A DNA stretch of 64,000 nt. Source: Proteromonas lacertae (lineage: Eukaryota). The position numbers were made by a program, and so were the translations under genes. Below are positions 1 through 47,900 of the stretch, one piece after another. Where the stretch lies: NCBI GenBank assembly GCA_002245135.1, contig NGBS01000010.1, positions 124,001-188,000 of the forward strand, given 5' to 3'. The notes below the pieces were generated by a model. It was not told where the DNA came from. It worked only from the letters and a program-made list of their open reading frames with translations, and ran no database searches. Each line of letters begins with the position of its first letter. Position 1 is the first letter of the stretch.

Positions 1-701
1 AAAGGACCAGGCACAGAAAAATACTTGATAAATGTAACAAAAACTAGCAATATTAAATAAATATACTCAACATAATCTATTATAACCATCGATATTTTGT
101 ATTTATCATATAATATATAAGATAAACAACCTAGAAGTAATTCCCATATTCTAGTATCAATCAAGAAATATGTATATTCAGCATGACTCTTATAATTCAC
201 ACATAAAAGTATATATGATACAATTGTAATTCCTAATACTACATATTTAAATATAATATTACACATTATAAATATTATAGGATAAAATATATAAAATTGA
301 TTCTCAATAGATAAAGACCAAAAATGTAAAATTGGTGATTGATAGCCACAATAGAAATAATTGACTGATGATTTGTAAAATCTAATATTAGCTATATATA
401 CAGTTGCTGATTGAATATCTTTCAGTAAAGTAATGCTTTTAAAATAATGAGTATTATCTACTAATATCCACCATAAGCAAACATAGGCTGCTGGATATAT
501 TCTATTTATTCTTCTCTGATAAAATTTTAAGCAACTAAAGCCTTTTCTATATAAACTATTGGTAATTACAAATCCAGATACTACAAATAATATATCAACT
601 CCATATACACCATTTACCAAAAAAGATGTATAATAATGAAACAATAATACAAAGAGAATAGAAACTCCTCTTAAACCTTCTATATCATCTCTAAAATTCA
701 T
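1..701 (-). CDS. Acyltransferase-3 (OafA/OatA-like) O-acyltransferase, 3' end outside window
   Basis: Not in the ORF track. Manual translation from the ATG at 701 gives MNFRDDIEGLRGVSILFVLLFH...GVYGVDILFVVSGFVIT...FYQRRINRIYPA...ILHFWSLSIENQFYIFYP, which are AT3 family motifs. Paralog of the 728-2530 gene. Confidence 0.88.
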   Translation of the reverse strand, partial: MNFRDDIEGLRGVSILFVLLFHYYTSFLVNGVYGVDILFVVSGFVITNSLYRKGFSCLKFYQRRINRIYPAAYVCLWWILVDNTHYFKSITLLKDIQSATVYIANIRFYKSSVNYFYCGYQSPILHFWSLSIENQFYIFYPIIFIMCNIIFKYVVLGITIVSYILLCVNYKSHAEYTYFLIDTRIWELLLGCLSYILYDKYKISMVIIDYVEYIYLILLVFVTFIKYFSVPGP

Positions 702-727
702 CTTAATAATGACAAACTAGAATTGAA

Positions 728-2530
728 TTATTTGATTATATCCTCCAAAACTTTATTATAATTTGTTACTGATTCAAATCCATACCTATAAATTGTATAA
801 GTATTATTTCTATCAATTATTGACATATTCAATTGTTTTGAAAAATCTTCAAGTAATTTGATTGTTATATGAGGTAAAATATGATTATCATCTTTATATA
901 ATGATCTTCCATTTATAAATACATCGCAATCATTCTGACAAAACCACTTATTCACAAAAATATATTTGACATGAGAGTAATTCAATAATGGAAATTGATT
1001 CCATGTTGCATTTACACCTAATTTTGCTTTAACATTGTATATGTTGTTCAAAGTGAATGGTTCAAACAACAGAAATGGAGTATCTTGAATAACATAAACA
1101 TGATTTGAATATTTATTTATTTCTTTCAAATAAATAGGCCATTTTTCTTTTACAACTTCTTCTTTGATATGCCAATGATTATAATCCAATGAATGAGATA
1201 AAAATATATTATAAATTCTTCCTGTATAACTGAATATCTTTGATAATGTAGAAAAATCAATCGAAAGAATAGAAGAAATATACATATTGAAGTATATTAT
1301 CTTTCTTGTTGGAAATAAATCCAATCTCAAAAATATAGGAAACCATTGAAGAATATGAGAATCTCCAATAAAGAATGTTCCATTAAAATTCTTCAATTTT
1401 GATGAATCTCCACACCACATGTATGTTCTATCAAGTGTAATCCATTCTAATCTTGCTTCTTCCATCTTTTGGGTTATATTCAATTCACTATTAAATTCTA
1501 ACTGAAATTCTGTATATCTAACTGATATTATAACCAAAATAATAACTCCAATCACAATTGTAAGAATTGTATATGTTTTTAATTGCATTTTGTTTATTGG
1601 TTTTTCTATCATGTAATACAATAGCAAGGTCAAAAGGAATATCATTATATAGTTGATTGATAATGAATATTCTGATAATTTCAATATAGAATAGTGAACT
1701 AAATACAATGAAAATGATATATTACCAATAAATACCAGCAATGAGAAATTAAAAACATTACTCTTCTCATTTGCCATTAAATACAGACAAACCAACATTG
1801 CTGGTAAAATAGACATATATCCAGGATATGTAATGATTTGAGTATTATATAAATACAAACAAATCATTATTCCTATCATTGAAACATATTTCACAATGTG
1901 GGATAATCTGTAATTTATAATACTACAAAACATTCCACAAATAAATTCCCATAATCTTGATTCTATTGAAAAATATGAATAACTATGATTGGAGTAAGTG
2001 GTTAAACAACAAATTATAAAGGATAAGAACAACATCATCAACAAAACATTATTCAATATTTTTGCACTGAATGTATTATACATGAATAAAAAGATGATGA
2101 AAAAATGCCATTCTATTGATAAAGACCAATAATGAAGAATATATGATTGTATAGTTGGAGAGTAATAATCTAACACTTTCATGTAAAATTTAATATTCAA
2201 CACTTGAAGAACTGCATATTGAATATCATTTATAAATTCTTTTCTATATATTTCTGGTATTATGTTGATAAATATTAGTAAAACAACTAACACAAAATAT
2301 GAAGCTGGTAATAATCTTTTACATCTTTTTGATATATTAATTATAAAACCATTCTGTCTTTTCAGACTTGGCAATATTAGAAAACCTGAAATAATATAGA
2401 AAATATCAACACCCAAATAACCTCCAGGCAAATATTCTTCATTTGTATGATATACTAAAACAGCTAAACAAGCAATTCCTCTTAAAAATTGAATATCATA
2501 TCTAAATAATGTATTTGACAAATGTTTCAT
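728..2530 (-). CDS. AT3 acyltransferase fused to a C-terminal SGNH domain (OafA-like O-acetyltransferase)
   Basis: FRYDIQFLRGIA, GGYLGVDIFYIISGF, HYWSLSIEWHF, SRLWEF, GNISFSLYLVHY and many TM segments, then SGNH motifs FIGDSH and YKDDNH. First ATG is at 2530 (the track starts at TTG 2539). No introns seen. Confidence 0.9.
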   Translation of the reverse strand: MKHLSNTLFRYDIQFLRGIACLAVLVYHTNEEYLPGGYLGVDIFYIISGFLILPSLKRQNGFIINISKRCKRLLPASYFVLVVLLIFINIIPEIYRKEFINDIQYAVLQVLNIKFYMKVLDYYSPTIQSYILHYWSLSIEWHFFIIFLFMYNTFSAKILNNVLLMMLFLSFIICCLTTYSNHSYSYFSIESRLWEFICGMFCSIINYRLSHIVKYVSMIGIMICLYLYNTQIITYPGYMSILPAMLVCLYLMANEKSNVFNFSLLVFIGNISFSLYLVHYSILKLSEYSLSINYIMIFLLTLLLYYMIEKPINKMQLKTYTILTIVIGVIILVIISVRYTEFQLEFNSELNITQKMEEARLEWITLDRTYMWCGDSSKLKNFNGTFFIGDSHILQWFPIFLRLDLFPTRKIIYFNMYISSILSIDFSTLSKIFSYTGRIYNIFLSHSLDYNHWHIKEEVVKEKWPIYLKEINKYSNHVYVIQDTPFLLFEPFTLNNIYNVKAKLGVNATWNQFPLLNYSHVKYIFVNKWFCQNDCDVFINGRSLYKDDNHILPHITIKLLEDFSKQLNMSIIDRNNTYTIYRYGFESVTNYNKVLEDIIK

Positions 2531-2606
2531 TATAAACAACTATTATACAAAATAAATATTGAAAATATAAATCTAAACAAGCTATAATAAATAATTATAA
2601 ATTATT

Positions 2607-3725
2607 TTACCAAAACTCTTTTCTTTCATAACCATATTCACTAAAATATATATTTCCATTTTCAAAATATGGATAATTCAATGAAAAACCAACTGTATTC
2701 TTAAATTCATCTATTATTCTAACAACATTACTAGCTCTAGTACCACTAAATGCAATACAATGTAATGCTGTTTTAACATCAGCAATAAAATTCAATGTCA
2801 TTTTATCTCCTTTATTTAAATTTTCTGTATAATTATCATTTAATCTTTTAAAATTTAAATAGTAAACATCAGAATAATGCTTTTGAAAATAATCTATCAC
2901 TTCTGGATCATCAGATGATAAGTAAATTGGGATTTTTTTCTTAACAATGGAATTAAATAACTTTACAGAATGCAAGTATTTATCTGATGTTAATAATTGC
3001 ATTTCTTTATACTTATCTCCATGTCTAACCCATACATTAATACAACCAGACTCTAAATCATTTCCTACTGAATCTTTAATCATTTCACTTACTCTGTTAT
3101 TTGTTTTTTCATTCAATCTAAAAATATATGTTGTTGATTGTATTCTCCAGTAAGGCAGTAGATTCTCTTTTGGAATGACAGAATTTGACAGTAGTTTACT
3201 AACATAGGCTGGTACACAGTCAATACAATTATATAACATCCTTAGATATAAATATTTCTCTGTTTGAGAGCTGTTTTGATATTCAGTAGTATTTATAAAA
3301 GCTGTTCTAGGTAATGAACAGTTGGTTAACGGTTCAAAATAACATTCCCATGTTGTTATGTTATTACAGAACTCTCCAACTGTTTTTTTATTTTGGTAGA
3401 AAGGATCAAATACAACAATTCTGTTTATTGTAAGAGCTAATGCCAAATATGTACTGAGTACATGAATTTCAGATCCATGCCCTGTATCAAATCCGCTGAT
3501 TATAAGAAATGACTTATTTTCACAATTTTGAGGATTTTGATGTTGAAAAATATATTTTTGTACTTCATAGGTGTGTGATATAACATTTTTACAATTTGAT
3601 TTGGTATTGGGTGTCATTCTGTAATATGATTTATGAGGAAACTCACCTTTTACACTAATAACCTTTTTATTGTTATAACAATATAGTCTGTTAAATATTA
3701 CATAATGGTTTCTTTTGTGGATGTT
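2607..3725 (-). CDS. Alpha-1,6-fucosyltransferase-like protein (GT23/FUT8-like); 5' end uncertain
   Basis: GxGSEIH, WECYFEP, NVWVRHGDKYKE, IYLSSDDPEV and FSGTRASNVVRII match FUT8/NodZ-type motifs. The frame stays open upstream of ATG 3617 to ~3725. A hydrophobic MLLIYLF start near 3806 is out of frame, probably because of an indel. Confidence 0.72.
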   Translation of the reverse strand, partial: NIHKRNHYVIFNRLYCYNNKKVISVKGEFPHKSYYRMTPNTKSNCKNVISHTYEVQKYIFQHQNPQNCENKSFLIISGFDTGHGSEIHVLSTYLALALTINRIVVFDPFYQNKKTVGEFCNNITTWECYFEPLTNCSLPRTAFINTTEYQNSSQTEKYLYLRMLYNCIDCVPAYVSKLLSNSVIPKENLLPYWRIQSTTYIFRLNEKTNNRVSEMIKDSVGNDLESGCINVWVRHGDKYKEMQLLTSDKYLHSVKLFNSIVKKKIPIYLSSDDPEVIDYFQKHYSDVYYLNFKRLNDNYTENLNKGDKMTLNFIADVKTALHCIAFSGTRASNVVRIIDEFKNTVGFSLNYPYFENGNIYFSEYGYERKEFW

Positions 3726-3863
3726 TTAGTAAATAATATTATTTTCACGTTTTTTCTATGGTGTTGTTCAAATCAACTAAGTGTAAAACAAATATATAAG
3801 CAACATTATAAGGTGAATAAATTAGGCAATATACTCTTTCTTATATAATCGATTAATTGACTT

Positions 3864-4934
3864 ATGTTTTACCATTTGTTGTATATATCCTCAATTATAC
3901 TTATTTTTATATTTTATTCGATTGTATTTAATAAAAATGTAAATAGTAATTCGTATATGCCTTTTGTAGGAATGAGTTTAATTCACAAAACTAACTATTC
4001 CAAATATAACAACGCTAAGAGAAAAAGTGATAGGAATATAGCAGTAGTTACAACTTTAGCAAACTATCCATTTAATTTTATAAAAAGTTTCGTATATAGT
4101 TTAAAAAATGTAGATTATAAAGGGCACATCATATTGTTTGTAAGTGATATATATGATTTTAATTTATCTTATCCAATAATTCATCAAATTCTAGTAAATA
4201 ATAATTATCCTTATTATTTATCAGATAATAAAGAGTTTCCAATATCAAAAGATGTTTTATTAGAATATATCCCAAATCATTGTCATTGGAATACAAACAG
4301 ATATTATTTGTTTAGTATATGGTTAAAATTTTATCATTCAAAGTTCAATTATTTCTATTACTGTGATGGAAGAGATGTATTATTCCAACTAAATCCATCA
4401 ATGTGGAATTTTGGTCTAGGTGTGTATTTAACACTAGAAAGCGATAAAGTTAAGATAAAAAACAGTAATATTAATGTTATTTGGACAAGAGATTTTAAAA
4501 TGGATAAATCAATATATGAAGAACATGTTATAAATAGTGGTACAATATTTGGATCCTCAAATGAAATAACGCTATATATTTCCGAACTATTGTATATGCT
4601 CAAATATATAAATATGACATGTAATAATGATCAAGGCGCATTTATATATTATTACTATTCACATCCTCCTTTTCCTTATCCAGTTTATTTACAGAAACAA
4701 GGATATGGATTTGCTTTAACTTTAGTTGATTTAGGATGTGATTCATTCTTTACTGATTATTGTAAAAATAGCATTTCTATAAATGATAGTAAAATTTATA
4801 ACTTAGACGAAACTATTCCAATCATTGTTCATGGATTAGAAAGGTGGAAAAATACAAAGAATGAGACGAGAAAAAATGAGTATTACAACTTCATAAATAA
4901 ATATTATCCAAATTATTCATCAAAAAATAGCTAA
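3864..4934 (+). CDS. Type II membrane putative GT-A-fold glycosyltransferase (DxRDVxFQ family)
   Basis: N-terminal signal anchor. Motifs CDGRDVLFQLNP, INSGTIFG, NDQGAF and PIIVH. Paralog of 6070-7095. Confidence 0.65.
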   Translation: MFYHLLYISSIILIFIFYSIVFNKNVNSNSYMPFVGMSLIHKTNYSKYNNAKRKSDRNIAVVTTLANYPFNFIKSFVYSLKNVDYKGHIILFVSDIYDFNLSYPIIHQILVNNNYPYYLSDNKEFPISKDVLLEYIPNHCHWNTNRYYLFSIWLKFYHSKFNYFYYCDGRDVLFQLNPSMWNFGLGVYLTLESDKVKIKNSNINVIWTRDFKMDKSIYEEHVINSGTIFGSSNEITLYISELLYMLKYINMTCNNDQGAFIYYYYSHPPFPYPVYLQKQGYGFALTLVDLGCDSFFTDYCKNSISINDSKIYNLDETIPIIVHGLERWKNTKNETRKNEYYNFINKYYPNYSSKNS

Positions 4935-4942
4935 AAATGACA

Positions 4943-6057
4943 CTAAGTATAAAATGATAATCCAATTTTCCTCTTTACCTTTTCTGCTATTTTTTCAATT
5001 CTTTTCATAGTTTTATTCTTTATACTTTTCCTAAACTCTCTGCATAAACTCTCCATTCCACTTTTCATGTGCCTTGTATGTCTTAAATAAGCAATATTTG
5101 GATCAATCCATGTCTCTGTGATATTCATATGAATAGGAACATTGTGTACTTCTAATCCAGATACTTTAAAAGGACTAGCAATTACATATTTTCTAGCAAA
5201 TCCATTATATGTTTGACATGAAGAATTAATATTAAACATATTAATATCTTTTAATGGAATTGTTCTGTCATACTTTGATTCAACTACAATATGAGATGTA
5301 GGAAATAATCTTGTGTGTGTCCAATAAACATCATATTTGGGCAAGCTATTAAACAAATCATCATAACTATTTCCAATAACTGGCCACAATATTTCATCGT
5401 AATCACATTCCATTATATATTCTGCTATTTCTTGGTATTGATGAAAACAATGATTAAGTTTAGCTACTTCTCCATAATAAATGTTTCTCCACGCTATTTC
5501 CATTCCTTCATCATATTTATATAAATCCAAAATACCGTCTTTTATATAATAGTCTAATACTTTCATAACATCTAATGAAGAGCTTGTTAAGTAACTTACA
5601 ACCTTTGACACACCAAAATATTTTAATGATTCAAAATGTTGGACTAAATAGTTTGCTCTTGAGTAATTTACCAATATTCTTGAACATATTACATACTTAT
5701 ACTTCTTGTGAATTGGTTCAGGTATTTTTATATCCACATTGTTAATTCTAACATAATTTGGCTTTTCATTACTCTCAGTTAATATTTTTATATCAAAGAA
5801 TGAACTATCTATTTCACCATAGTATTTGCTGAATTTTGCTGTGCAATTAACACTTTTTCTACTATATATTAGTCCACATTTATTGATTTTTATATCAGAA
5901 TGAGGTGAATAACCATGTAATAATATTTGATTGTTACTTTTTTTATAAAATACTCCATTTATATAAGAACTTTTAAAAATTTGATAATGTATAGAAAAAA
6001 AAATATCGCTCCTATTGTAATAAGATAAGAGTTATATGTGATTATATTGATTAGCAT
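4943..6057 (-). CDS. GT92/DUF23-like glycosyltransferase (one apparent missing base near 6034)
   Basis: FGVSKVVSY, NHCFHQY, IMECDYDEILWP (DxD), KY and H motifs. The frame is open from the track's GTG at 5737 up to ~6031. ATG 6057 (MLINIITY..LLSYY) joins with a one-base correction. Confidence 0.7.
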
Positions 6058-6069
6058 TAATTTAAAAAA

Positions 6070-7095
6070 TTATATATTCAAAAATCTATGTTGATATTTT
6101 TTTGTTAAATTATAATCTCTATCATATTGATGAACAATTAAAGGAATAGTACCATCTTCATTATATAATGTTTCATTAATAATTCTCAAATTCACAAAAT
6201 TCCTGAAATGAGTTAAATCTAAGGCTAAACTATACACTACTCCCTTTTCATTTCTATTTATATAGAATTTTATGTTTTTAAAATAATTTGAGTAATATAA
6301 GAAAATAAATGTTCCTTGATCAATTGTGTCAGTATTGTTATCTCTTATAAAATTTGAATATTGACTCATAAATGGTATGAAATAATTCGATGAGCCAATT
6401 ATAGTACCAGAATTTAATACTTTGTTATTCAGTATTTGCTGTGACTTTGTATAAGCAGATACCCATATTCTATTATAGACTTCTCCATTAATTGTCATAT
6501 TATATTTTGTTTCATCAACAAGATAAACACCATCTTGAAAATTCCAATTAAATGGATTTCCTTGAAATACAACGTCTTTAACATCTACACTAATAATGTG
6601 GGTGTATTTTGAGCCATACGTCTTTAACCAACAATTTAATATTGACACTCTGTATATTGGCCATGGACATCCATATGATCTATTTCCAATCATACAATCA
6701 TTCAATACACTCTTTTCAATTGGAAAAAATGTATTATTCTTTGAATAAAATGGCCATTCATTCTCAATTAGAATAGGTTTTATTTTAAACTCTTCAATTT
6801 TTTCTTTCATCTCTTCATACTTATTTAATGAAATTCCCATTATCAAATCCCCATTATAACTATTTCTTAAAGAAGTAACAAACATAGACATTTTATCCCA
6901 ATTAAAACTTGCTGCAAATCCAAATACAACAGGATTTTTAATATTATAAATTATATTTTGATCATAATATAAGTAAGATGAATGAGTATAATTGTTATTT
7001 TGTATGGGAAAAAGACTTTTCTTTTTATAGATTGAACAAATTATAAATATAAATGATATTATAAATAGAAATATCAATAAATTCACAATGTTCAT
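6070..7095 (-). CDS. Type II membrane putative GT-A-fold glycosyltransferase, paralog of 3864-4934
   Basis: Signal anchor. Motifs FVTSLR, VDVKDVVFQGNPF, LNSGTIIG, IDQGTF and PLIVHQYDR. Confidence 0.68.
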   Translation of the reverse strand: MNIVNLLIFLFIISFIFIICSIYKKKSLFPIQNNNYTHSSYLYYDQNIIYNIKNPVVFGFAASFNWDKMSMFVTSLRNSYNGDLIMGISLNKYEEMKEKIEEFKIKPILIENEWPFYSKNNTFFPIEKSVLNDCMIGNRSYGCPWPIYRVSILNCWLKTYGSKYTHIISVDVKDVVFQGNPFNWNFQDGVYLVDETKYNMTINGEVYNRIWVSAYTKSQQILNNKVLNSGTIIGSSNYFIPFMSQYSNFIRDNNTDTIDQGTFIFLYYSNYFKNIKFYINRNEKGVVYSLALDLTHFRNFVNLRIINETLYNEDGTIPLIVHQYDRDYNLTKKYQHRFLNI

Positions 7096-7099
7096 CCTT

Positions 7100-8661
7100 T
7101 TAAGGTATATTCAAATATTCTTGAGTCATATTACATGAACAACCAAACACTACATGAAATTCATGACAATTTCTTGTTTTGGGTATTTTGTTAAATAAGC
7201 TAATTCCTCTCTTATTTTGTATATTGCTTAAATTCTATTAATAGAATAATATGTATTTATGTACACTTCCAAAATGAGCAATATCAAATAATGTTGAATG
7301 TAAATCATATCCTGTTACAAATCTATTTTGGTTAATTTTCATATTCATATTTATTTCAGGATACTTTTTTGAAAACCATTTAGGAAAAACCTATTCAAGT
7401 TATTATTTATATATTAATGTTTTATACCATAAACATCAATGGAAGAGAATGATCTAAAGTTCCAAACTACAACTATATAAAATATTATTCATACATTTGT
7501 TGCTTTATATGGACCATAATGAATTCCATGATCAGAAAAAATAATAAGCACAGAATCATTTAAAATTCTCTCTTTATGAAGGAATTTTATATAATCTGAT
7601 AAATCTTTGTCAATTCTTGGGAGTGATAATAATAAATAATCATGTGCTTCTAGAAAAACTGATACAGAAAAAGTAGGTTGTTTCTTTAAATGATAATATT
7701 TAATAGACTCTTTTAAATATTCAAATGCATATTTGTGAATCTCTTTATGACCTACACATCTTGCATGATGACCATATTGACCTTCTCCTCCTACATTACT
7801 ATAAATATAACAAATGATACATAAATAGTAATACTTATATCTGGGATCTTCACATAAGAAATTCACATAATGATCAGAACCATTATAATTATTATTTGCT
7901 GTTAATTTTTCATATGGATCTACGAATAGAACAGTATTTATAGTTTTATATCCTTCTTCTTTAAAATCTTCAAATATGATTTTATTGATATTTTGTCCTT
8001 CTGTCTCATTTACCCCATAAAATAATGTTGGATAATGTGGATTGGAATTAGCAGCTAAAGTATGATATCTTAACATATCATAAGTAGAGTAATGAGATGA
8101 AATAGATTTTAATGTCTTTACTGTTTGTTGTAATTGCTTTTTAGCAACATATCTTGATACTGCATCAATTAATAGTAAGTTTACAGATAATTTTTCACTC
8201 TTTATATTATTATCAATGTGTTGCGGTATGAATTTGATATACCAATCATAATCCTTCCCAGTATAATTTGATTTGGTTCTTACCACTTCAGACTGTAAAG
8301 CAATTGACTCTCCTTTATGAAGTGATTTAGTTCTGATTGTATATTTCTTTATATTTCTAACATATTGTGATATTTCTGTATTGATCAACGCATATATAGT
8401 ATTATTCTGTATTAAAATGGATGGTTTGACTAAAGGACAAGATTCATTATTTGATTTAACAATAATTGTATAATTATTCTCTGCATAACATGGTAATCTA
8501 CACAATTCTTGATCAAAATCATATTCAACATTATCAATTAAACTTGAACATAAATAATTTCTTATTTGTGTATTTTCATACTTGTATATATAATTTATTG
8601 TGGTAATAATTAAAATCATCATTATCAAGCTATATAAAAATATGTAATATATTCTTCTCAT
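7100..8661 (-). CDS. DUF229-like alkaline phosphatase/sulfatase-superfamily protein, 4 introns
   Basis: Signal anchor from ATG 8661. Motifs LLIDAVSR, EAHD and IIFSDHGIHYG. Removing introns 7799-7834 (36 nt), 7467-7494 (28), 7391-7427 (37) and 7235-7264 (30) gives GTLDHSLPLMFMVFPKWF...NQNRFVTGYDLHSTL...GISLFNKIPKTRNC..CSC, with the stop at 7100-7102. Confidence 0.8.
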
Positions 8662-8787
8662 CGTTATTAAAACCACTTCACCTTTAGTTATAAAAATAGA
8701 AATAATAACAATAAGGTTAGAAAAATGTAACAATATAAATTATATTCATTTACTAATAGAAACATATATTAACAAAAACTAAATTCT

Positions 8788-9497
8788 CTATTTCTTTTCA
8801 TTTATAAGGCTAAAAATTGTATCACATTGTGATATAAATATATCATTTTTATAATACCCATTACTTTTCAACAAATCTTCCATAGATTTCATAACTTCTG
8901 TACTTAAATGATTAGTTTCAATCATCCAGTGAGATACAGTTATATTAAAATCGAAAGTCATTAATACTTCCAATTCTGCACTTTCAACATCTAATGAAAA
9001 ATAGTCTATGTGTTTTACATTGTAAGAATTTAGAATAGTTCCTAACTTATAACATTTTGTCTTCGGATCTTTTTTATTATTACGATCTATACTTCCTCCT
9101 GTTCCTCCTTGCCAAAATACTGTATCATTAGTATTACATATTAATGAACAAACAATTTCTTAATTTTTTCTTACATTCTTATTATTCACCAGCTTTTTTA
9201 CAGTTATTTTCTCCTCCTTCTATTAATAATCCTTTCCAATTATAATTCTTTTCATAAAAATATGTATTACTCAACCATATTCCATCATAAGCACCCATTT
9301 CTACGAAAAATCCATCTCTTTTATTTTGAAAGAAATGACTAAACATTAATAAATCTTGACCAAACTGACTTTTAGCATTAGTTACATTAATTATATTGGG
9401 ACATTCTTTTGTAGTAACATCAAATACAGAATATATATTATAAATAAAAAAACCTTGCTAAGATTGATAGAAAAATGATAAAATAAATAATATTCAT
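8788..9497 (-). CDS. FkbM-family SAM methyltransferase with N-terminal anchor; frame disrupted (errors, an atypical intron or a pseudogene)
   Basis: SQFGQD, GFFVEMGAYDGIWLSNTYFYEKNYNWKGLLIEG and HIDYFSLDVESAELEVL. There are +1 shifts near 9455 and 9195 and an in-frame TAA at 9160-9162. Confidence 0.78.
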
Positions 9498-10355
9498 TTA
9501 AAACTTTAATGAATGGTAGAATTTATTTGTTGTTTTATTCTCTATTTTATTCCACATTTCTTCTGAAACATGTGTATTCCAACTGAAATAATCTCCTATA
9601 TATTTTTTGTCTATTATTACATACGAATAATTTGAAAAAATAACACTCTCTGGAACACTTGTTTCTGATATAGCATGTATTCCTTTTGATAATAGCTCAC
9701 TTATTCTATTTATCATTCTACTTGACCATCTTTGAACAAATTCCTTAGAAAAATATCCAACTGAGTTATTTGAATATATCATTCTCCATCTTGTATAATT
9801 ATCAGTACAACAATGAAGAAGCGGCCATAATGTATCACTATAAAGAGTTATTTCAGATGTTATAAAATCATAATCAGTCTTATCATATACTTTAAAAAAA
9901 TCGTTTAAAACACCACTATAACCAATATCTTGTTCTAATACCCAAACATATTTATATTTTTCTTTACACTTCTTATACCACTCTATTATTGACTCTGTGT
10001 GAGAAATCCAAGGATAAAATACTTCATCAGGAACATTTCCATGTCTACAATGTCCAGGTGTTCTTAAATCTTTTATTAGTGGATATCTTCGAATTATAAA
10101 ATCAGTATCAATTCTAAATACATTTCTAAACGAAAAATTGAATGTCGTTTTAGAATTTGTAATAATCCAAAATGTATATATTTTTTCTAGTTTTTTTATC
10201 CACGACAAATATCTCTTCTGTTGGTTGATTGCTGGATTAACAGCTCTTATTACAACAGCAATAGGATCATTATTTCTTCTCCCGTAATAAATTAATATAT
10301 TTAACAGAATAAATATTAAAAGTATCGCTATAAAAATAAATACATTTATTAACAT
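9498..10355 (-). CDS. Type II membrane protein, putative GT-A-like glycosyltransferase
   Basis: Intact 285-aa ORF with a signal anchor. YKYVWVLEQDIGYSG is an ExD variant of DxD, and the C-terminus is FYHSLKF. Confidence 0.55.
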   Translation of the reverse strand: MLINVFIFIAILLIFILLNILIYYGRRNNDPIAVVIRAVNPAINQQKRYLSWIKKLEKIYTFWIITNSKTTFNFSFRNVFRIDTDFIIRRYPLIKDLRTPGHCRHGNVPDEVFYPWISHTESIIEWYKKCKEKYKYVWVLEQDIGYSGVLNDFFKVYDKTDYDFITSEITLYSDTLWPLLHCCTDNYTRWRMIYSNNSVGYFSKEFVQRWSSRMINRISELLSKGIHAISETSVPESVIFSNYSYVIIDKKYIGDYFSWNTHVSEEMWNKIENKTTNKFYHSLKF

Positions 10356-10407
10356 AAATAAAAAACATCATTTTATAATAGGCTCGACTTGAGATTCTTT
10401 GTAAATA

Positions 10408-11821
10408 ATGAATAATATCATTGCTATATTAGTAGTATGTACAATAATTATTATTTTATCTTCTATTATTATCTGCAAATATCAATATAAAGGTCTTAAT
10501 AACGAATGTGAGTTTTTCTATAATGATTGTGCTTTGAAGATGTTTAAAGAAATATCGCATTATAATGTAGTACCTATTACCACTGTTTCATACAAATTTT
10601 TATCGCAATTCTATAATTTTTGGTTAGTTTCTGCAACAAAAACTGGATTTAAAAGATTCATTGTTATAGCTTATGATATTCAGTCATATAAATTTGCAAA
10701 GAATTTAACTCCATTTGTGCTGAAGAATAAACAATTAATAAATCAAACAGATGAAGTTGTGTTTTCAAATAAAGATTATATAAAGGTGATTATGTCAAGA
10801 ATGTTATTAACAAAACATTTAATTGATAATGGTTTTTCAGTTTTTGTAATGGACTCAGATATAATTCTTTTTAAAAATCCTATACCATACCTATTATTGC
10901 ATAATAATTATGATATTGTTTCACATAAAGAATTACCATATGATAATAAAAATGATATAAATTGTGGTTTTATGTATTATAATATTTATAATAGCTAGAA
11001 TGTTTCGACAATCAAAAAAAATGAGAATTTTCTTTAAGAATCTAACTGAAGCAGAAGAATATGCAAATGGCACAATTATTTATGATCAAGGATATATAAA
11101 TGATAATATAATTTCAGGAAAATATAACCTTTCAGTGTATAAATTTACATTAAATCAAGCAGTATCAGGATGGATTATGATGAATACATTAGGTTTGTAT
11201 TATTATGAAGATGTTGAAAAGAGTATACTAGATTATTTAATATTACATAGTAAAAGAAAATCTAATTGTAATTCATTTTGATTGGATAATATCTTTATTT
11301 GAAAAGGAGTATAGACAAAGGGAAATGTTATATTATGAATATGATGAGAATAATTATTATTCATCATTTAGTACCAAATATTTTCAATTAAATTATAATG
11401 CAGAGAATTTGGATTTAGAGAAAAAAATAACTCTCTTTGGATTACATATCGCTCTTGTATCAGGAAGAAAATTTATTATGCCAAAATATAATTGCAGCTA
11501 CAAAAACAGATTCACGAACATTAAAGGTAAAAAGTGTACTTTAGCAGACATGTTTAATGTTGGAGGATTATCAAAGGCAAAACATTTATTTAGAGAAAAT
11601 GTATATATATATTAATTTTATAATCACAATAGTCTTTCTTAAAAAATAAAAACATACCAAGTACTATAAAATCTTCGGTTATAACATTTCATGTAAATAT
11701 TATTACTGAAAAAAGTATTAATGAACTTCTGAAAAATAAAGAAAAAGTTGTGCATATATATTTCAAGAATATCAGTTGGGATGAAAGAAATGTAAATTAT
11801 AAAATAAAGAACATTATTTGA
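10408..11821 (+). CDS. Nucleotide-diphospho-sugar transferase (GT77-like), 3 introns
   Basis: Signal anchor. Motifs MDSDIILFKNP, INCGF, DQGYIN and HFDW..K. Introns 10974-10998 (25 nt), 11223-11250 (28) and 11601-11632 (32) join three track ORFs in frame, with TGA at 11819-11821. Confidence 0.8.
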
Positions 11822-11832
11822 TAAATATTTTT

Positions 11833-12943
11833 TTACAAAATGTGAGGAAATCTAATACATTTGTTTAATTTATTATTGTCTTTTACATCTGTATATCTTT
11901 CATTGTTTATAATTTCACCATTTTCATTTATAAATGCAATTCTGTTCTTTATTTCTTCATACTTTTTATTTTTGAAGAACATATACAAAACCAGTTTAGA
12001 GTATGTACTGTAATCATTCACAATTAAATAATCAGTCATGCTAGCAAAAATAATATCCCCTACAGTTTTTTCTATACTCCTATTATCGTATACTTTAGCG
12101 CTGTGTTTAGGAATTACATTTGGCCATAATAATACAGTTTTGTTATAATTGTAAGATAATTTACTATATAAAATTGAGTTTGCTGAACTAATAAACAACC
12201 AGCATTTCTTATTGCGAGTAAGGTTATTCACAACATTAATTATTCTTTCTATAATTGAATTTTCTATATCACAATGATTAGAAATAATACAACCATCATT
12301 TGATCTATAATGTAATCCTATTTTACATTCACTATTGTATGATTCTACATACTTCAATACTTTTATTCTTATTCTCTTTTTCAGTACTACAACATTACTA
12401 AATATTTTACTGTTAGTTTGATATATTTTTTCTTTTACACTACTTCTAATATCTTTTATATATTTGTTCTTCTTAAACCATTTTAATAATTTTTTACACT
12501 TTAACAAGGTCGGTATTAAATCTAACACGTCTATTATTACATACCCTGATTTACTTGATTTAAATAGGTTATTATAGAAATCACATATATCATCGCAATA
12601 TCCTTCCCACATAAACTGAATTAGTGTATAATTAATTGAAACATATTTAATAGGATTTAAATATGCATTACTATCAATATAGTCTTTGACATATTCATAT
12701 TTATTTACTATTTTATAGAGTTGATTTTTTTATTATACAGAATAGTTTTCTATGTGATAATTGTGATAGAATAAAACTACTTGAAATTCCAAACAATCTA
12801 TTACTCAATCCACTAAAAATAATATCATTAACAAACACCTTCTTTGTCTTTCTTATTCTAAAACATACACATATGGCTACAATAGTAATTGTAACAGCTG
12901 AAATAAATGTTGATATTTTTACCATTATAATATAAACCACCAT
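11833..12943 (-). CDS. Fucosyltransferase-like GT-B protein (GT11/GT23/GT37-like), 1 intron
   Basis: Signal anchor. Motifs SGLSNRLFGISS, IGLHYRSND, LFISS and STYS. A 31-nt intron at 12708-12738 joins the two track ORFs. Confidence 0.68.
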
Positions 12944-13491: not shown

Positions 13492-16400
13492 ATGGATGAT
13501 ATACAAACAAGGTATATTTATTCTGTCTTATTATTTACTATAGAAATGTAGTAGCTTCACAATATGTATGTAATATATTTTATAGAATAGATCTTGCAAT
13601 TTGAGAATATACTGGATGATTTACAGAACAATGTAACAGATATACTGCAAAACACCTGCAGCACTATAGAAACGGATCGTTTTAGTAAAGATATTCACAC
13701 ATTATTCGATCCATTGAGATCAAATCTAAAGAAATGCTTTATTAGTTGTTCAAATATATCAAAGTTACAATCAAAGCTTGAAGAGATATACAAAACAGTA
13801 GATCAATATATAGAAATAAATAAAAGTAGTAATAGCAACTTACTAACTAGTAATGAATACTTAGTAATTCTAGAAACAATCACCAAAACTCAAAGGAAGA
13901 TAATAACTGATTTACTCGTTCCAGATGAAGATATTCTTTCAATATCATACAATAATATAATACAAAATGTTCCATCTCCAACAGCATCCTATTCTAGACG
14001 TAAAGATTCAGTTTGTTCCTGTTCATCACCAATTCATACTGACGAACCATTGGATAATGATTTAAATGAAACATCCAAATCATTATTAGAAACGGTGAAG
14101 AATAAATTGATTAGTTATCAATGTGAATTTGAGAATAACCTAGTGGAAAGATTTGTATCAGATTCTAGAGAGAAAGATGAACAGATTCAGATGTTGGAAA
14201 TGGAGTTAGAATCATGTAAACAAAATTCAAATTTTGATGAAATTAGAAAAGAATATGAGCCAATTATTGATGAGTTAGAGAATCAAATAAAGCAGTTAAA
14301 GAATGATAATAAAGATCTTCGCTTAGATTATGAGTTTGTATTATCAAATATTTCATCATTAGCCAATATTGAGAGTAATAATGATAATAATGATAATGAC
14401 GAGAATGGTGTATTTACAGATGGTTTAACTCCTTCATCTTGTTATATTGATAATTTGGAAAAGATCCAAAAAGACTTAATGACAATGAATAAAGAATTGA
14501 AAGGAATAATTGAAAGAAAGAATTTATATATAAACTCATTAGACTTGGAGAAAATAGAGAAATATAATGAGAATATAAAAGCTGTAGATGAGATAGTAAA
14601 AGAGTCAATAGATCATCCTAACAAGTTATTAGCTAAACAATTCCAACAGATTAGTTTATTAATAAAGAATATAGGTGATATATCTCAAGATTATCAGAAT
14701 ATGAAAAACCAAATAAAAGATGAAATGAGATTAGAAATGAAAGAATCATATAGAGCAATTGAACAAGAACATACATTCAAATACCAAAAATTATTAGAAA
14801 AATACCAAAAAGAAGTAGAGCAACATTCATTAGATAAATCAAAATATGAAAAATTAAAAATTGACACAAATCTACTAATCAGTTGGTATAAAGAGGAGTT
14901 GAAACAATATTTAGAATCTTACCCAATGGAAGATGATAATGACAATATAGATACTGAAGATCCAACTACTATTGATGGACCAAAACGATATAAAGACTTA
15001 TTATATGAATATCATTTACAACATCATCAATCTACCTTAAAAGATGTAACAATACAATATTTAAGAGGAGTATTAGATAAAGAGAAAAAGAAGAGAATAA
15101 TATCAAACCAAAGGTTTGTGGATATGATAAAAGATTTTGATGATTTGAAGAAACAATATTTGAAGTTGTTAATATCTGATAATACGAAGATAAGTGAGTT
15201 AAATAGTTTGAGATCGACATTAAAACATACACTATTAGAGAGAAAAGAGAATGGTGATGAAGAGTTGAATGATATACCACTCAAGGAGGATTATAAATCC
15301 ATTCCAATTTGATACATCTATTGATTTAGTAGTAGATAAAATTGATGAAACTCTGAGTGATATAAATGAAATTTGTAATATAGATGAAGTTCCAAAAACA
15401 GGTAAAGAGACTGTATATAGCAAATGGTCAAAGAAAATAACAGAATTGGAAGATATTATTGAACAAAGAGATGATTCTTTAAATGATAAAGAGTTTTTAT
15501 TGAAACAGAATAATAAACTGATTGAATTAGAATCAAAGATAAGAGAGAAAGATAATCAAATTAATGACTTTGTAGTACAATTAAATGAGATTCAAAATGG
15601 TGTTTTTGTAATGGAAGATATTGATAAGAATGAAGATGGTAATGGTAATAATGATAGTAGTGATGTATCTACAAATTCAAAGAAATTTAAGAATCTGTTA
15701 AAAGAAAAAGAAAAGGAAAATCGATGAACTAAATCAAACTTTAGAAGATTTAACAATAGAAAATGATAATATGAAATACTTATTAGATGGTTCAAGAGAA
15801 TCAACAATTGGATCAATTGTCACTGTTACCAACAAATATAAAACTAACAGTCAATGAATATTCTGATTTGAACATATTTGAAACATCCATTGAAGATGTT
15901 GAAGATGTGAGTGACACTGCAGAATATCAAGCGTTATTACACGATTTTGATTTATTAACTATTGAGTATAATAAACTAAAATCAAGAAAAGGAGATAATG
16001 AAAATGGTGAATATGATGATAATGAAAATGATAATTTGGAGAGTAGAAAGTTGGATGAAGCATTAGTAGAGAATGAAGAATTGAAGTTGGAACTACAAAA
16101 TGCTGATGAATTGAATGCAGATTTACAAGCTGAAATATCATCTCTACGATATAAATTAGAGAATAAAGAAGATAAGAGTCTAAATGAAAGAGTTTGATAT
16201 AGATGAAATGAAGATTGAAATAGATAATTATAAGAGTCAAATAAAACTGTTGGAAGAACAACATCATAATGATGCTGATAATTATGAAAGTGAATTATTA
16301 TCGAAAGATGAAGAACTTATAAAGTTAAGAGATGAATATGAGAGATTGCAGAAAGAAATGGAGTTATTAAAGAATAGTGATGAAATAAGTAAAGAAGGAA

Positions 16401-22963: not shown

Positions 22964-23684
22964 CTATAAATTTGGATGAACACCTAAAAATTGTGAATCT
23001 ATTTCTCTAATTCCGTTTACATCAACAACTTTAGTTATAAAATTGGTTTCGTTAATAAATGATCTAGTGTAAAGTGCATTAACACATGTCTTTAATAGTG
23101 ATTTAGCTTCATCTAAATTCATATTATCCTAAATAAAAAATAAAAATATATATATTGTATATCTAATACTTTGTATTGTTCATCGCATATAGCTTGAGTG
23201 AATGTACCGGCTACTCCTTGCACCGTGTATTTCATTGGACGTAATGCTGCCATATAGTCAAGATAGTAGAGTGATGGACCACAATCATCATCATAACCTG
23301 CAATAAGCATATCACATTGATAAGGTCCTTTTCTCAAAGCTTCGGCCAATTCTTTTCTGATGAAATGAGCTGCTGAGTGAGTACTTGATTCATATGAATT
23401 TCTGAGTCTGAAAAGTGTTAAATTCTTTTGTATATATTCTGAAAAAACGACTCTATCACCTGCATCTCCAACTAAAGCAAGCATTTTTCTATTATCAATT
23501 GAAACAATCTATTTCATATAGAAAATGCAAATTAAAAAATACTTTATCTTCATCTTGTTTATAGTTCAAAAAAGAATAAGGAGCATTACTATCAGCGGTA
23601 ATTATAACAAAGCTACATAAAAAAATAGGCAAATGAATAACTTATAGTATACTCTTTGCCTTTAATTCCGATAAGAGCTTCCAT
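22964..23684 (-). CDS. PSMB2: 20S proteasome subunit beta type-2 (beta4), 3 introns
   Basis: MEALIGIKGKDFVIITAD...KQDEDKI...GDAGDRVVFSEYIQKNL...AAHFIRKELAEALRKGPYQ..LIAGYD...GPSLYYLDY...KVVDVNGIRE. Introns are 23613-23652, 23509-23542 and 23129-23169. Confidence 0.95.
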
Positions 23685-44900: not shown

Positions 44901-47900
44901 CTTTAGTAGGATATGTTAAAGAAATGAATATAACAGAGAAAGGATGGAAGTGTATTTAGTTTTAATGATGATGGATATGAGTTAGATAATGGAGATTATA
45001 TTTGTGTAGGTAATTCATTAAATGATGCTCAATTCAGAGTTAAAAAGATGAATAATAATGAATATGAATTGGAAGATATTAAACATTATCAACCAATATT
45101 ATTTGAATTAGAAGATTTAGATAAATATAACCATAGAATACCAATTTATAGACCTCAAAGAACATCAGCAATTGATATAAATGAAGAAGCTGATTCATTG
45201 AAAAAGAAATTAGAGAAATTATATCAAATCGGAAGAGTAGATGTTGAGAAAGAGAAACAAGGATATGGCTATTTATATACAATGAAAATAACACAATATA
45301 ATAACTTAACAAAATTACTAGTAAATGATTTGAATATAATTGGATTTAATAATGCAAAATCATCCGTTACAACTTATACATATAACGAATATATTATTTC
45401 GCCATTAGATGATAAGAAGTTTGTATATGTTCGAATTGCAGCTTGCAATATAGTTGGATGTGGTAATTATTACCAAATACCCATACCATTACAGCCAAAG
45501 AATACTGTACCAAGTGAAGTAACTCAAACTAATATAAGATATATAACTGATCATAATGTATTATGTGAATGGAATAAAGCTAAAGAGAATGGCGGTTTGA
45601 ATATTGACAGTTATACAGTTGAAATAGAAACTGGTACATCATTTGGTAGTAATTCTAATAAAGAAATTATTGAAGTGAATGATACAAAACCAACTAAACA
45701 TATTGAAAGAATTACATTGTCTTATAATAACCATACAAAATGGAATACATTTTTAATTGGTTTTTATGGTCAATACACCAATCCATTACCTTATGATATA
45801 TTATCTGAAGATATGGAAGTAGAATTGAATAGATTATGTACAATTCAAAAAGTGAGTGTTTATAGAACAATATTGAAGAATGGTTTTAGTTGGACAATTA
45901 CCTTTGATGAAATGGAATATGGTGGTGATTTATCCAATCAATTAACAGTAAAATCATTAGGGTTAGGAGAAGAATCACAAGATCAAATAATTGTTGAGAA
46001 TATTCCAGTCAAAAGAGGAAATTTACCATATTATATAATAGTAGAAAAACAATATGCAATTAAATCACCTCAATCTTGTAGAGTATATACACACAATTCA
46101 TTAGGTAATAGTAAAGAATCAATTAGAACAGTAAATCAATTGAATGATGATTATTCAACAATATATCCATTAGCTCCATTAGATATTAAAGTGGAGAATT
46201 CAGGTAGTACATCATTAACAGTGGAATGGCTAAGACCTTTCTATTATAATACTTATAAATATAATATGATGAATATGAGTTATACAATTGAATGGGATAT
46301 TATAAATACATTTAATAGTGAATGTAAAGAGAGTAATGATACTGAATGTTATCCAGATGATTTACAGCCAAAAGGTAGAAGTAAATTAGTTCCATATACT
46401 CATTCAACAAATCCAAAAGCAAAGAATAGTTATATAATTAATGATTTAATACCTGGTGTGTCTTATTTCGTTCAAATATATGTGTATAATGGTAAATATA
46501 GAGGAGAATCTGTTATATCAACCATGAAAGTATATCCATCAGGAAAACCGAATTTGCCATACAATATTAACTATTATAATTACAAAGTGAATGAGTTCTT
46601 ATTAGAATATGATGTTCCAGACAGTTTAACACCTTATGGAAATAATGGAGATGCAATAGAAACATTTACAATTGATATTGGAAGAAGATATATATCAAAA
46701 TATGAATTGAAATATGTTCATATTCCATTAGACACAACAGAGAAGTATAAATTGAAATATAATAACTATGAAACTAATGATATTGATATATATTGTGAAG
46801 CTGAAATTATAAAGAAAGAATTAGAGTTATTACCTGATATAGATATTGTTACAGTAGAAAGAATAGATGATGAAACTTATTCTATATTATTGAATGGTAA
46901 TAAGATGAATATACCAAAGGAATTAAGTGTAAATGTTGATGTTATGATATTAACAAAGTTACAAGATGGATATCCAGAGATTGTACCTCCAATAATGAGA
47001 ATTGAATCAAAGTCGATGAATAATAAAGAAGTTAGTAACAGTAATGGTTTTTTAATTGGTTTGAATCATATAGGAAATTATAAGTTCTATTCAGATATTA
47101 AAGTTGTTAAACCAAATGTTATTCAATTATATGATGATAATGATGAAAATGGAGAGTTATATATTGGTGAAAGAGTAATGATAAATAATACTGAAGAACA
47201 TATAGTAATTAATAAGATAAATGGAGAATATGTTTTAGATAGTCCAATATTAATGAAGAGTGATGAAAATAACGATTTAACTCTCTATACATTAGCAACT
47301 GTGTTAGGTGAAGGAAAATGTGAGTTTATTAATAATACATATTACTTAGTAACAGGAATTAACAATTTGACTGAATTGATTGTGTATAATGAAGATGAAA
47401 TAATAAGAGTTGAGAATAAAACTGGTTATGGTTACATAGTCAACAAATGTTCAAAATTAAATGAAAATAGAGTAATTAATTCAATACAAACAACTACAAT
47501 ATCCTGTAGATCAGAATCAGATGAAATATATAAGAAGTTAATGAAAGATTTACCAAGTTTAGGAGTAATAGAAGTAACAAATACAGGACCATCTTTATAT
47601 TATGAATATATATGGTATATAACATTTAAATCATATGTTGGAGAAATTAAAGACTTTTATTTTGAATATATTCCAACAGATAGTAATGTTGAAGTAACTT
47701 ATAGTTTTGTTTCAAAAGGTGAACCAAATGATAATTCATTATTACACTATGAACATACACAAGAACAAGAGAGAAATAGACAAGAGAGTCAAGAAATATT
47801 GATTTATGAAAATGATTTAGATGAATTCCCAAGTGGTTTAATTCAATCATTAGATTGTGAATTTTCATTAGATGTTAAATCAACTTCTGATGATTTGGTT

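Follow-up and report, generated by a model that had tools for sequence, protein, structure and literature searches.

Five closely packed genes for membrane-anchored, glycan-modifying proteins probably reflect a hyper-compact genome rather than an operon

Introduction

In microsporidia and nucleomorphs the mean spacer between genes is roughly 100 nt, and Williams et al. 2005 is cited on overlapping transcription in compact genomes. Close packing is also found in the spliced-leader operons of nematodes, tunicates (Oikopleura), flatworms and kinetoplastids, in which co-directional runs of genes, sometimes functionally related, are separated by very short intercistronic distances. Termination-reinitiation at UAAUG-type junctions is known from caliciviruses and from influenza B segment 7, and green algae have polycistronic mRNAs. 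The known cases of reinitiation need either a special upstream RNA element or upstream ORFs that are short or poor in AUGs; long upstream ORFs with many ATGs do not favour either reinitiation or leaky scanning.

In E. cuniculi and A. locustae, whose genomes are compact, transcripts are reported to overlap neighbouring genes, either by beginning within the upstream gene or by running on into the downstream one (PMC3629993). Ultra-short introns with a reduced 5' signal, 'GTa', are described for some animals and ciliates (myxobolid myxozoans, Dicyema and the Paramecium type) in PMC13644364 and PMC6543705. These animal genomes are not hyper-compact, since they measure 60-75 Mb with roughly 5,000-9,000 genes, figures drawn in part from PMC13644364.

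Here we describe a cluster of five genes in a 64,000-nt stretch of contig NGBS01000010.1 of Proteromonas lacertae, referred to below as the window, to which all positions refer. In and around the cluster, as in microsporidia and nucleomorphs, the spacers cannot accommodate UTRs and control signals, whichever way the genes are oriented. It resembles spliced-leader operons in its co-directional genes, very short spacing and related functions, and the caliciviruses, influenza B and green algae in that a stop codon abuts or nearly abuts the next AUG.

Results

Five co-directional genes and their products

Inspection of the junction sequences gave spacers of 0, 126, 4 and 12 nt between each stop codon and the next ATG in five minus-strand genes, the same arrangement and coordinates as had been reported in a first-pass annotation of this DNA:

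Gene 1, 9498..10355, minus strand: ORF of 285 codons, membrane anchor at the N-terminus, no match to a known family; stop TAA 9500-9498
Junction 1 (gene 1/gene 2), minus strand: TAA 9500-9498 directly abuts ATG 9497-9495
Gene 2, 8788..9497, minus strand: FkbM-like methyltransferase, frame broken twice; stop TAG 8790-8788
Junction 2 (gene 2/gene 3), minus strand: TAG 8790-8788, 126 nt, ATG 8661
Gene 3, 7100..8661, minus strand: DUF229, 488 codons; stop TAA 7102-7100
Gene 3 exons, minus strand: 8661-7495, 7466-7428, 7390-7265 and 7234-7100
Gene 3 introns, minus strand: 7494-7467, 7427-7391 and 7264-7235, GTA...TAG, of 28, 37 and 30 nt
Junction 3 (gene 3/gene 4), minus strand: TAA 7102-7100, AAGG, ATG 7095
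Gene 4, 6070..7095, minus strand: 341 codons, type II membrane protein whose model has a GT-A glycosyltransferase fold; stop TAA 6072-6070
Junction 4 (gene 4/gene 5), minus strand: TAA 6072-6070, 12 nt, ATG 6057
Gene 5, 4943..6057, minus strand: GT92 glycosyltransferase, anchor and catalytic ORF in different frames; stop TAG 4945-4943

We agree with that annotation that such spacers offer no space for conventional UTRs, promoters and poly(A) signals. The five genes are separate, encoding distinct families or folds (GT92, DUF229, FkbM and a GT-A fold, with gene 1 unassigned), and their products are type II membrane proteins. A known modifying or glycosyltransferase domain or fold was found for genes 2-5 by profiles or predicted fold. 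The 3' part of gene 2 matched Methyltransf_21 (30.9 bits, cut-off 22.7) and gene 5 matched Glyco_transf_92 (E 6.8e-25, 88.5 bits, cut-off 23). Gene 4 is a predicted GT-A glycosyltransferase: its model (pLDDT 83.4, pTM 0.81, with a helix at 3-26) gave GT6 alpha-1,3-galactosyltransferase, UGGT and LARGE1 as top Foldseek matches (E ~1e-7, TM 0.46-0.54), and Mimivirus R699 was one match among many of the GT-A type. Gene 1 had no Pfam or NCBIfam match, and a single-sequence fold made without an alignment was unusable (pLDDT 38).

The presence of spliceosomal introns in one gene of the cluster, also noted earlier, is borne out by gene 3, in which the three introns restore an open 488-codon DUF229 reading; its exons match the profile colinearly (positions 33-351, 367-406 and 419-455) with a score of 76.3 bits (cut-off 25). 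The introns modelled by script, which come from the DUF229, GT77, fucosyltransferase-like and proteasome beta genes, were all GTA...TAG (8/8) and 25-37 nt long. The cluster genes are nuclear and intron-bearing and, because they bear introns, are presumably transcribed by Pol II, as the first-pass annotation had also reasoned.

The cluster is part of a larger island, 1-12943, that holds some 12 glycan-modifying genes, and giant FN3/PA14/filamin ORFs lie 11 kb from it; that their proteins are substrates of the island enzymes is a possible but speculative connection. The G+C content is 25% and even across the whole window, and a tRNA scan of the window found none. Homologues came only from read-archive assemblies, and no DNA of relatives was found in JGI metagenome contigs or prokaryote genome contigs. 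The best named match of the proteasome beta subunit was a stramenopile protein (48% identity), and similarity leads pointed toward Evosea/Parabasalia for gene 4 and toward diatoms/oomycetes for the FN3 protein. Scores against PDB proteasomes did not discriminate between groups, and published work on myxozoans, dicyemids, orthonectids and rumen ciliates yielded candidates but no match.

Gene starts

All five proteins have their hydropathy maximum (17 residues; values 2.05-3.36) within the first 30 residues, with genes 2 and 5 scored on the anchor frame only; the highest value, 3.36, belongs to gene 1 (residues 6-22). ORF inspection showed in-frame stops close upstream of the cluster ATGs, in gene 4 five codons before ATG 7095. 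The N-termini of homologues match at equivalent positions for gene 2 (homologue P0036), gene 4 (P0004, which begins at the same residue) and gene 5 (eight aligned homologues), and a hydrophobic N-terminus is present in nine of the ten gene 4 homologues, P0011 being the one without. We take the cluster ATGs to be true starts, not chance ATGs, because of these hydrophobic anchors, upstream in-frame stops and homologue N-termini. The same evidence speaks against true starts far downstream, a circumstance that the first-pass annotation had named as one that would undermine its reading.

Tight spacing on both strands

The neighbours of the cluster on the opposite strand are as close as its own members:

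Gene 4 paralogue, 3864..4934, plus strand: 32% identity to gene 4; stop 4932-4934
GT77-type (Nucleotid_trans) gene, 10408..11821, plus strand: divergent from gene 1
Predicted introns of the GT77 gene, plus strand: 10974-10998, 11223-11250 and 11601-11632, one choice among alternative intron models

The gene 4 paralogue and gene 5 converge with 8 nt between their stop codons (4934/4943), and 52 nt separate the ATGs of gene 1 and the divergent GT77 gene (10355/10408). A second convergent pair (11821/11833) is 11 nt apart if one predicted intron, for which splice-site consensus is the sole support, is accepted, and other tandem spacers are of 26 and 76 nt. The ten junctions in 1-12943 therefore measure 0, 4, 8, 11, 12, 26, 52, 76, 126 and 246 nt (median ~19 nt), and exons make up about 94% of this region by arithmetic from the gene models. 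Short spacers in tandem, convergent and divergent pairs, combined with high coding density, are the pattern of a compact genome; that of an operon, with tight spacing confined to same-strand neighbours, was not found. The label 'operon-like' given to the cluster at first is right in that the genes are co-directional and tightly packed, but it overstates what sets the five apart, because the tightness is common to the whole window and the opposite-strand neighbours share it.

Single-gene mRNAs or a shared transcript

Convergent and divergent pairs are equally tight and cannot share an mRNA; therefore hyper-compaction is favoured over an operon. Of the two earlier alternatives, one message for several genes or control signals lying within adjacent coding sequence, the second is favoured by the 8-nt convergent pair, the 52-nt divergent pair and the ATG-rich cistrons, which count against the polycistron. 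We consider it probable that the cluster consists of five membrane-anchored glycan-modifying genes in a hyper-compact genome, each with its own mRNA and with promoter and 3'-end signals inside the neighbouring coding sequences. Transcription would start from a few to some tens of nt 5' of each ATG, within the 3' portion of the gene before it, so that the 5' UTRs would be very short. The 3' ends would form within the following gene or antisense to it, and neighbouring transcripts would therefore overlap. Each protein would be made from a capped mRNA of its own, with translation beginning at the first AUG. There may well also be read-through RNAs spanning two ORFs, as by-products and not as the translated form; such RNAs have been reported for microsporidia. 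The upstream cistrons contain 19, 26, 45 and 28 ATG triplets, and leaky scanning to a downstream ORF is therefore implausible.

Against the reading as overlapping single-gene mRNAs, a search of the 30 nt upstream of 12 starts gave no robust promoter or initiator word: the best 4-mer, ATAA, was present at 10 of the 12 (P 0.036 that some 4-mer is found at least that often), and neither 5-mers (P 0.58) nor 6-mers (P 0.24) were significant. Around 15 stops no common poly(A)-signal motif was seen by eye. It should also be said against this reading that co-directional, functionally related genes with abutting stops and starts are also what an operon is expected to look like.

That the five genes, or subsets of them (1-2; 3-4-5), form a true polycistronic unit with one promoter and one primary transcript appears unlikely. 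Such a transcript would be either cut to single-gene mRNAs, for example by spliced-leader trans-splicing coupled to polyadenylation, or translated by termination-reinitiation. The functional relatedness and common direction of the genes, the spacers of 0, 4 and 12 nt, the tight junctions without a promoter-like motif and the presence of a single long spacer, the 126 nt ahead of gene 3, which could house an internal promoter, would all suit this view, but an operon is not needed to explain a spacing that neighbours unable to share an mRNA show equally. The 0-, 4- and 12-nt spacers are of the size expected for termination-reinitiation; the upstream ORFs, at 285-488 codons and with 19-45 ATGs, are not short. 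With regard to trans-splicing, an Rfam scan of the window returned no RNA family, spliced-leader RNA included (one chance-level match, E 0.75), although a spliced-leader gene could sit elsewhere in the genome, and the AG dinucleotides upstream of the ATGs had no common context.

Frame breaks in genes 2 and 5

The starts at 9497 and 6057 each need one indel correction, as the first-pass annotation had stated, and in neither gene does a GT-AG intron of 10-200 nt link the anchor to the catalytic ORF. The sequence features concerned are as follows:

Homopolymer at the gene 5 frame break, 5995..6003: plus-strand A9, minus-strand T9
Candidate intron in gene 2, 9159..9189, minus strand: 31 nt, GTG...AAG, atypical for the genome

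One extra T in the T9 run restores the frame of gene 5, for which all eight aligned homologues have an unbroken ORF running from M through a hydrophobic stretch to the catalytic domain. The 5' break of gene 2 lies near a T7 run (9446-9452) and is corrected by one base fewer; this single indel was rightly called for at the outset, but a second break, mid-gene at 9199-9159, had been overlooked. There, the tblastn alignments of homologues P0036 and P0043 to gene 2 fall in two frames and contain an in-frame stop, P0036 itself being a single continuous ORF that includes the N-terminal anchor. The alternative to the candidate intron is a shift at an A6 run (9199-9194) together with an in-frame TAA (9162-9160). 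Introns with relaxed sites were also considered for the 5' breaks of genes 2 and 5 and rejected, since all those listed would cost the protein its anchor or residues that are conserved. An intron across the TAA that would join genes 1 and 2 was rejected, as the sole GT...TAG candidate found by eye gives the wrong frame.

Gene 2 may be decaying or mis-assembled, and a wider form of this idea is that the cluster is partly in decay, with gene 2 and perhaps gene 5 pseudogenes and the 0- and 12-nt junctions relics. On this account an expression mechanism would be needed at a single junction, that of 4 nt separating gene 3 from gene 4. The alignment of gene 2 in two frames points in this direction, as does the fact that its only in-frame rescue is the GTG...AAG intron, set against 8/8 GTA...TAG elsewhere, which would delete about 10 residues retained in both P0036 and P0043. 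Gene 5, for its part, breaks at the longest homopolymer class of the window, in which there are only two 9-base runs and none longer. Yet the ORFs are otherwise open and conserved (70% identity to P0025 over 362 codons for gene 5; 48-56% to P0036 for gene 2), and the breaks sit in homopolymers, at which long-read assemblies commonly err. At least eight other 7-8-base runs lie within ORFs that remain open. The frame also changes at 26.6 kb, and perhaps at 15.3 and 16.2 kb, where no good intron model accounts for it; this suggests about one indel in every 10 kb, a rate that assembly error could explain. Decay on this scale thus seems improbable; still, because two of the five genes are frame-broken in the assembly, two junctions out of the four may lie next to genes whose expression has ceased.

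The homopolymers would take on a different meaning in a genuine nuclear operon with restarts at TAA-ATG, TAA-N4-ATG and TAA-N12-ATG, in which T9 (GT92) and T7 (methyltransferase) serve as slippage-prone on/off switches. Phase-variable bacterial glycosyltransferases provide the model for such switches, but we regard this arrangement as very unlikely.

Viral origin and an altered code as alternatives

A viral source, either giant-virus DNA or an integrated segment, would place short AT-rich promoters used by a viral polymerase in the tiny spacers. Dense packing, 25% G+C, very large ORFs and a glycosylation cluster, of a sort that giant viruses are known to carry, would agree with this, as would the presence of Mimivirus R699 among the Foldseek matches of gene 4. 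It is nevertheless extremely unlikely: the same GTA...TAG introns occur in the cluster and in housekeeping genes, including that for the proteasome beta subunit, G+C is uniform over the window, two scans of a viral contig collection gave no relative, and Pfam scans of the window gave no viral hallmark gene. A code with TAA as a sense codon, as in ciliates, was rejected, as the frames past the stops are riddled with stops and the standard code leaves ORFs of more than 5,000 codons open.

Discussion

The median spacer found here (~19 nt over ten junctions) is smaller than the means of about 100 nt in microsporidia and nucleomorphs. The region differs from those genomes in being intron-rich, with introns of 25-37 nt in lineage-specific and housekeeping genes alike, and in carrying a large set of glycosylation genes besides ORFs of more than 5,000 codons; to our knowledge none of these features is typical of microsporidia or nucleomorphs. 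Spliced-leader operons are tight only among same-strand neighbours within the unit, whereas here convergent and divergent pairs are equally so; moreover, 0-12 nt between stop and ATG leaves no space for a trans-splice acceptor and a 3' UTR, and neither a spliced leader nor its RNA was detected within the window. The reinitiation systems differ in their upstream ORFs, which here have 285-488 codons and 19-45 ATG triplets.

With the myxobolid myxozoans, Dicyema and Paramecium-type ciliates the likeness lies in introns of 22-37 nt with a 'GTa' 5' signal. A 3' TAG is present in all eight introns here; PMC13644364 and PMC6543705 describe TAG for neither dicyemids nor non-myxobolid myxozoans.

The lineage is poorly represented in named databases, with close relatives only in read-archive assemblies. 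If its genes are expressed as overlapping single-gene transcripts, the locus would be a further and unusually extreme case of eukaryotic genome compaction, one that, unlike that of the microsporidia, goes together with numerous tiny introns, giant genes and a rich set of glycosylation enzymes. Overlapping mRNAs would also make it a good system for studying the minimal size of a Pol II promoter, a 5' UTR and a 3'-end signal, and the ways in which coding sequence can also serve for control. If multi-ORF mRNAs were instead translated, the cluster would be a rare example of operon-like translation of long ORFs in the nucleus.

Gene boundaries in the five-gene cluster

The first-pass annotation had described five genes running in the same direction on the minus strand, with stop-to-start spacers of 0, 126, 4 and 12 nt, and direct reading of that strand gave the same four values:

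TAA 9500-9498, then ATG 9497, minus strand: gene 1/gene 2 junction, spacer 0 nt
TAG 8790-8788, then ATG 8661, minus strand: gene 2/gene 3 junction, spacer 126 nt
TAA 7102-7100, then ATG 7095, minus strand: gene 3/gene 4 junction, spacer 4 nt (AAGG)
TAA 6072-6070, then ATG 6057, minus strand: gene 4/gene 5 junction, spacer 12 nt

Within the 126-nt spacer, which precedes gene 3, a different frame contains a hydrophobic mini-ORF of 25 codons (window 8691-8765, minus strand); it could represent a uORF, a leftover or mere chance.

In this window, an ATG that comes after a stop does not on its own prove a gene boundary, since the ATGs at 26652 and 27158 lie inside FN3 domains. Both fall among giant ORFs between 23.9 and 60.7 kb:

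23920-60677, plus strand: four consecutive ORFs of 905, 152, 5,933 and 5,209 codons, with FN3, PA14 and filamin domains

The gaps from stop to ATG among these ORFs (14, 47 and 88 nt) probably reflect introns or shifts of frame inside one or two genes. A candidate GTA...TAG intron (44952-44985 or 44952-45009) could connect the two giant ORFs, and a single gene with as many as about 12,000 codons may therefore be present; for the junction near 26.6 kb no good intron model was obtained, and a frameshift may account for it.

The five clustered genes encode different proteins. Gene 1 (285 codons) found no family match in Pfam and NCBIfam profile searches, gene 2 is an FkbM-type methyltransferase by profile match (6,135 library matches at E up to 0.001), gene 3 falls in the Pfam family DUF229 and gene 5 in GT92 (E 6.8e-25). 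Gene 4 has no Pfam family, and its structure model, built from a 12-sequence alignment (pLDDT 83.4, pTM 0.81), had as best PDB matches the GT-A glycosyltransferases GT6 alpha-1,3-galactosyltransferase, UGGT and LARGE1 (E about 1e-7, TM 0.46-0.54). The FkbM exon aligns with 13 distinct segments of a 3,928-residue library protein (P0034), apparently a tandem array of FkbM domains.

Each of the five genes opens at its ATG with a hydrophobic stretch characteristic of a type II signal anchor, seen in the gene 4 model as a helix at residues 3-26. The gene 4 frame closes five codons upstream of ATG 7095, its next in-frame Met sits past residues conserved in all homologues, and P0004, a library homologue 68% identical to it, starts at the same residue; the N-terminus is hydrophobic in nine of ten gene 4 homologues, the exception being P0011. 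An uninterrupted ORF that begins at Met, passes a hydrophobic stretch and continues into the catalytic part (a conserved block for gene 5) is seen in all eight aligned gene 5 homologues, and likewise in P0036, the closest representative of gene 2. The anchors, together with the homologues of genes 2, 4 and 5, settle the boundaries among the five genes and identify these ATGs, rather than others well downstream, as the true starts.

Frame breaks in genes 2 and 5

The starts at 9497 and 6057 had each been said to depend on one indel correction, and so they do: no GT-AG intron of 10-200 nt joining the anchor to the catalytic ORF was found for either gene 5 or gene 2. Gene 5 would be open throughout if its T9 run (plus-strand A9, 5995-6003) were T10; the window has 21 runs of at least 7 bases, and just two of them, this one included, reach 9. 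Gene 2 would pass its 5' break if the T7 region (9446-9452) had one base fewer. A second break in gene 2, unnoticed in the first pass, closes the frame past the motif region. Only a 31-nt GTG...AAG intron (9189-9159) would restore the frame there, and it differs from all eight GTA...TAG introns modelled in the window; tblastn of P0036 and a second homologue, P0043, runs straight through this segment in another frame, across the in-frame TAA at 9162-9160. Gene 2 thus contains assembly errors at two homopolymers, is undergoing decay or has acquired an odd young intron.

In both genes the breaks coincide with T9, T7 and A6 (9194-9199) runs near the 5' ends. Assembly error or decay could explain them, as could, on a more speculative view, slippage-based switching of the kind found in phase-variable bacterial glycosyltransferases. 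Decay would make two of the junctions relics beside dying genes, which we consider doubtful. About one indel per 10 kb is typical of long-read assemblies, and such a background is plausible here given the further frame changes that have no good intron model (26.6 kb, perhaps 15.3 and 16.2 kb). At least eight other runs of 7-8 bases fall within ORFs that remain open. On the plus strand, consecutive ORFs for acidic, coiled-coil-like proteins share 44 and 14 nt while differing in frame (15269-15312 and 16184-16197), which could point to overlapping genes, to short introns of atypical form (a 22-nt GTT...AAG candidate was seen by eye) or to indels.

Ultra-short introns

The claim of spliceosomal introns stood, as gene 3 yields a single open reading of 488 codons, ending at TAA 7102-7100, only with three introns removed (28, 37 and 30 nt), and its exons are colinear with DUF229 profile segments 33-351, 367-406 and 419-455. 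Eight introns were modelled by script, all GTA...TAG and 25-37 nt long (three in gene 3, three in a GT77 gene, one each in a fucosyltransferase-like and a proteasome gene); where several in-frame options were listed, we chose the GTA...TAG option that kept family-like residues.

7235-7494, 10974-11632, about 12700-12730 and 23509-23542: the eight modelled introns, in housekeeping and lineage-specific genes

By eye, the proteasome gene has a similar ninth intron near 23.17 kb. Ultra-short introns also occur in Paramecium-type ciliates, and litostome ciliates use the standard genetic code. Some rumen ciliates are described as having low-G+C, unfragmented chromosomes (bioRxiv 10.1101/2022.01.05.474053). 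The 'GTa' donor likens the introns of the window to the ultra-short ones described for myxobolid myxozoans and Dicyema (PMC13644364; PMC6543705); these groups, like the ciliates, are no more than candidate relatives.

A glycosylation island

The strand that carries the five genes also has, downstream of them, a FUT8-like gene and two AT3 acyltransferase genes, where the tandem spacers measure 76 and 26 nt. Two neighbours are on the opposite strand, and the island as a whole uses both:

3864-4934, plus strand: gene 4 paralogue, convergent, its stop 8 nt from the gene 5 stop
Divergent from gene 1, plus strand: GT77 gene, 52 nt between the ATGs
1-12943, both strands: two AT3 genes (one fused to SGNH), FUT8-like, two paralogous GT-A, GT92, DUF229, FkbM, GT77, fucosyltransferase-like and one unknown

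The convergent fucosyltransferase-like gene has its stop 11 nt from that of the GT77 gene if a 32-nt intron predicted in the latter is accepted. These roughly 12 adjacent genes for predicted glycan-modifying enzymes, including one without an assigned family, form a eukaryotic 'glycosylation island' that resembles the glycan clusters of bacteria or giant viruses. Its ten spacers are 0, 4, 8, 11, 12, 26, 52, 76, 126 and 246 nt, and the exon share is about 94% by arithmetic from the gene models. The 52-nt divergent spacer (10356-10407) contains the only relatively G+C-rich block among the cluster spacers, GGCTCGACTTGAG (plus strand), which might serve gene 1 and the GT77 gene as a common promoter element.

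Overlapping transcripts or an operon

The first pass had offered two readings of the packing, a polycistronic mRNA or signals embedded in neighbouring coding sequences. The tight co-directional packing is real; of these two options the operon-like one is less probable, since a convergent pair (8 nt between stops) and a divergent pair (52 nt between ATGs), for which a shared mRNA offers no explanation, match the tandem pairs in tightness. The most parsimonious interpretation is hyper-compaction of the entire genome or, at a minimum, of this region. Neighbouring coding sequence would in that case accommodate the promoters, 5' UTRs and 3'-end signals, and transcripts of adjoining genes would overlap; overlapping single-gene mRNAs are accordingly what we predict, with some confidence, for the five genes. 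No shared promoter-like motif was found upstream of 12 starts (5- and 6-mers were not significant; ATAA precedes 10 of the 12, family-wise P 0.036), and inspection of 15 stops by eye revealed no 3' motif in common, so the embedded signals are putative.

A true polycistron would account for the tandem spacing and is improbable: long, ATG-rich upstream cistrons disfavour leaky scanning and reinitiation, and those here, of 285-488 codons with 19-45 ATG triplets, make translation of downstream ORFs unlikely. Overlapping microsporidian transcripts were reportedly first described by Williams et al. in 2005. According to a later source, E. cuniculi transcripts often initiate in upstream genes and A. 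locustae transcripts often terminate in downstream genes (PMC3629993); the same arrangement is proposed here from gene spacing.

Nuclear origin and significance

The window is nuclear DNA from an AT-rich eukaryote. G+C is 23-30% throughout, frames are long under the standard code (the ORFs of 5,933 and 5,209 codons avoid in-frame TAA, TAG and TGA alike), and cellular eukaryotic genes with small introns are present, namely a proteasome beta subunit (PSMB2/beta-4 type), a WD40/CAP-Gly gene and an Hsp70-superfamily gene; a viral origin of the region is hardly credible. A tRNA scan of the 64 kb found no tRNA genes and an Rfam scan no credible family. Close relatives occurred only in read-archive assemblies, at 93% identity for the proteasome exon and 70% for genes 4 and 5; some of their products read through short in-frame introns and thus derive from DNA. 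Among named sequences the best proteasome match is a stramenopile (48% identity), and Atlas leads were Evosea/Parabasalia for gene 4 and diatoms/oomycetes for the FN3 protein.

With its expression predicted from sequence, the five-gene cluster would belong with compact eukaryotic genomes showing overlapping gene expression, a known phenomenon. The distinctive features are the extent of compaction in a genome that is rich in introns and has giant genes, and the 12-gene glycosylation island.
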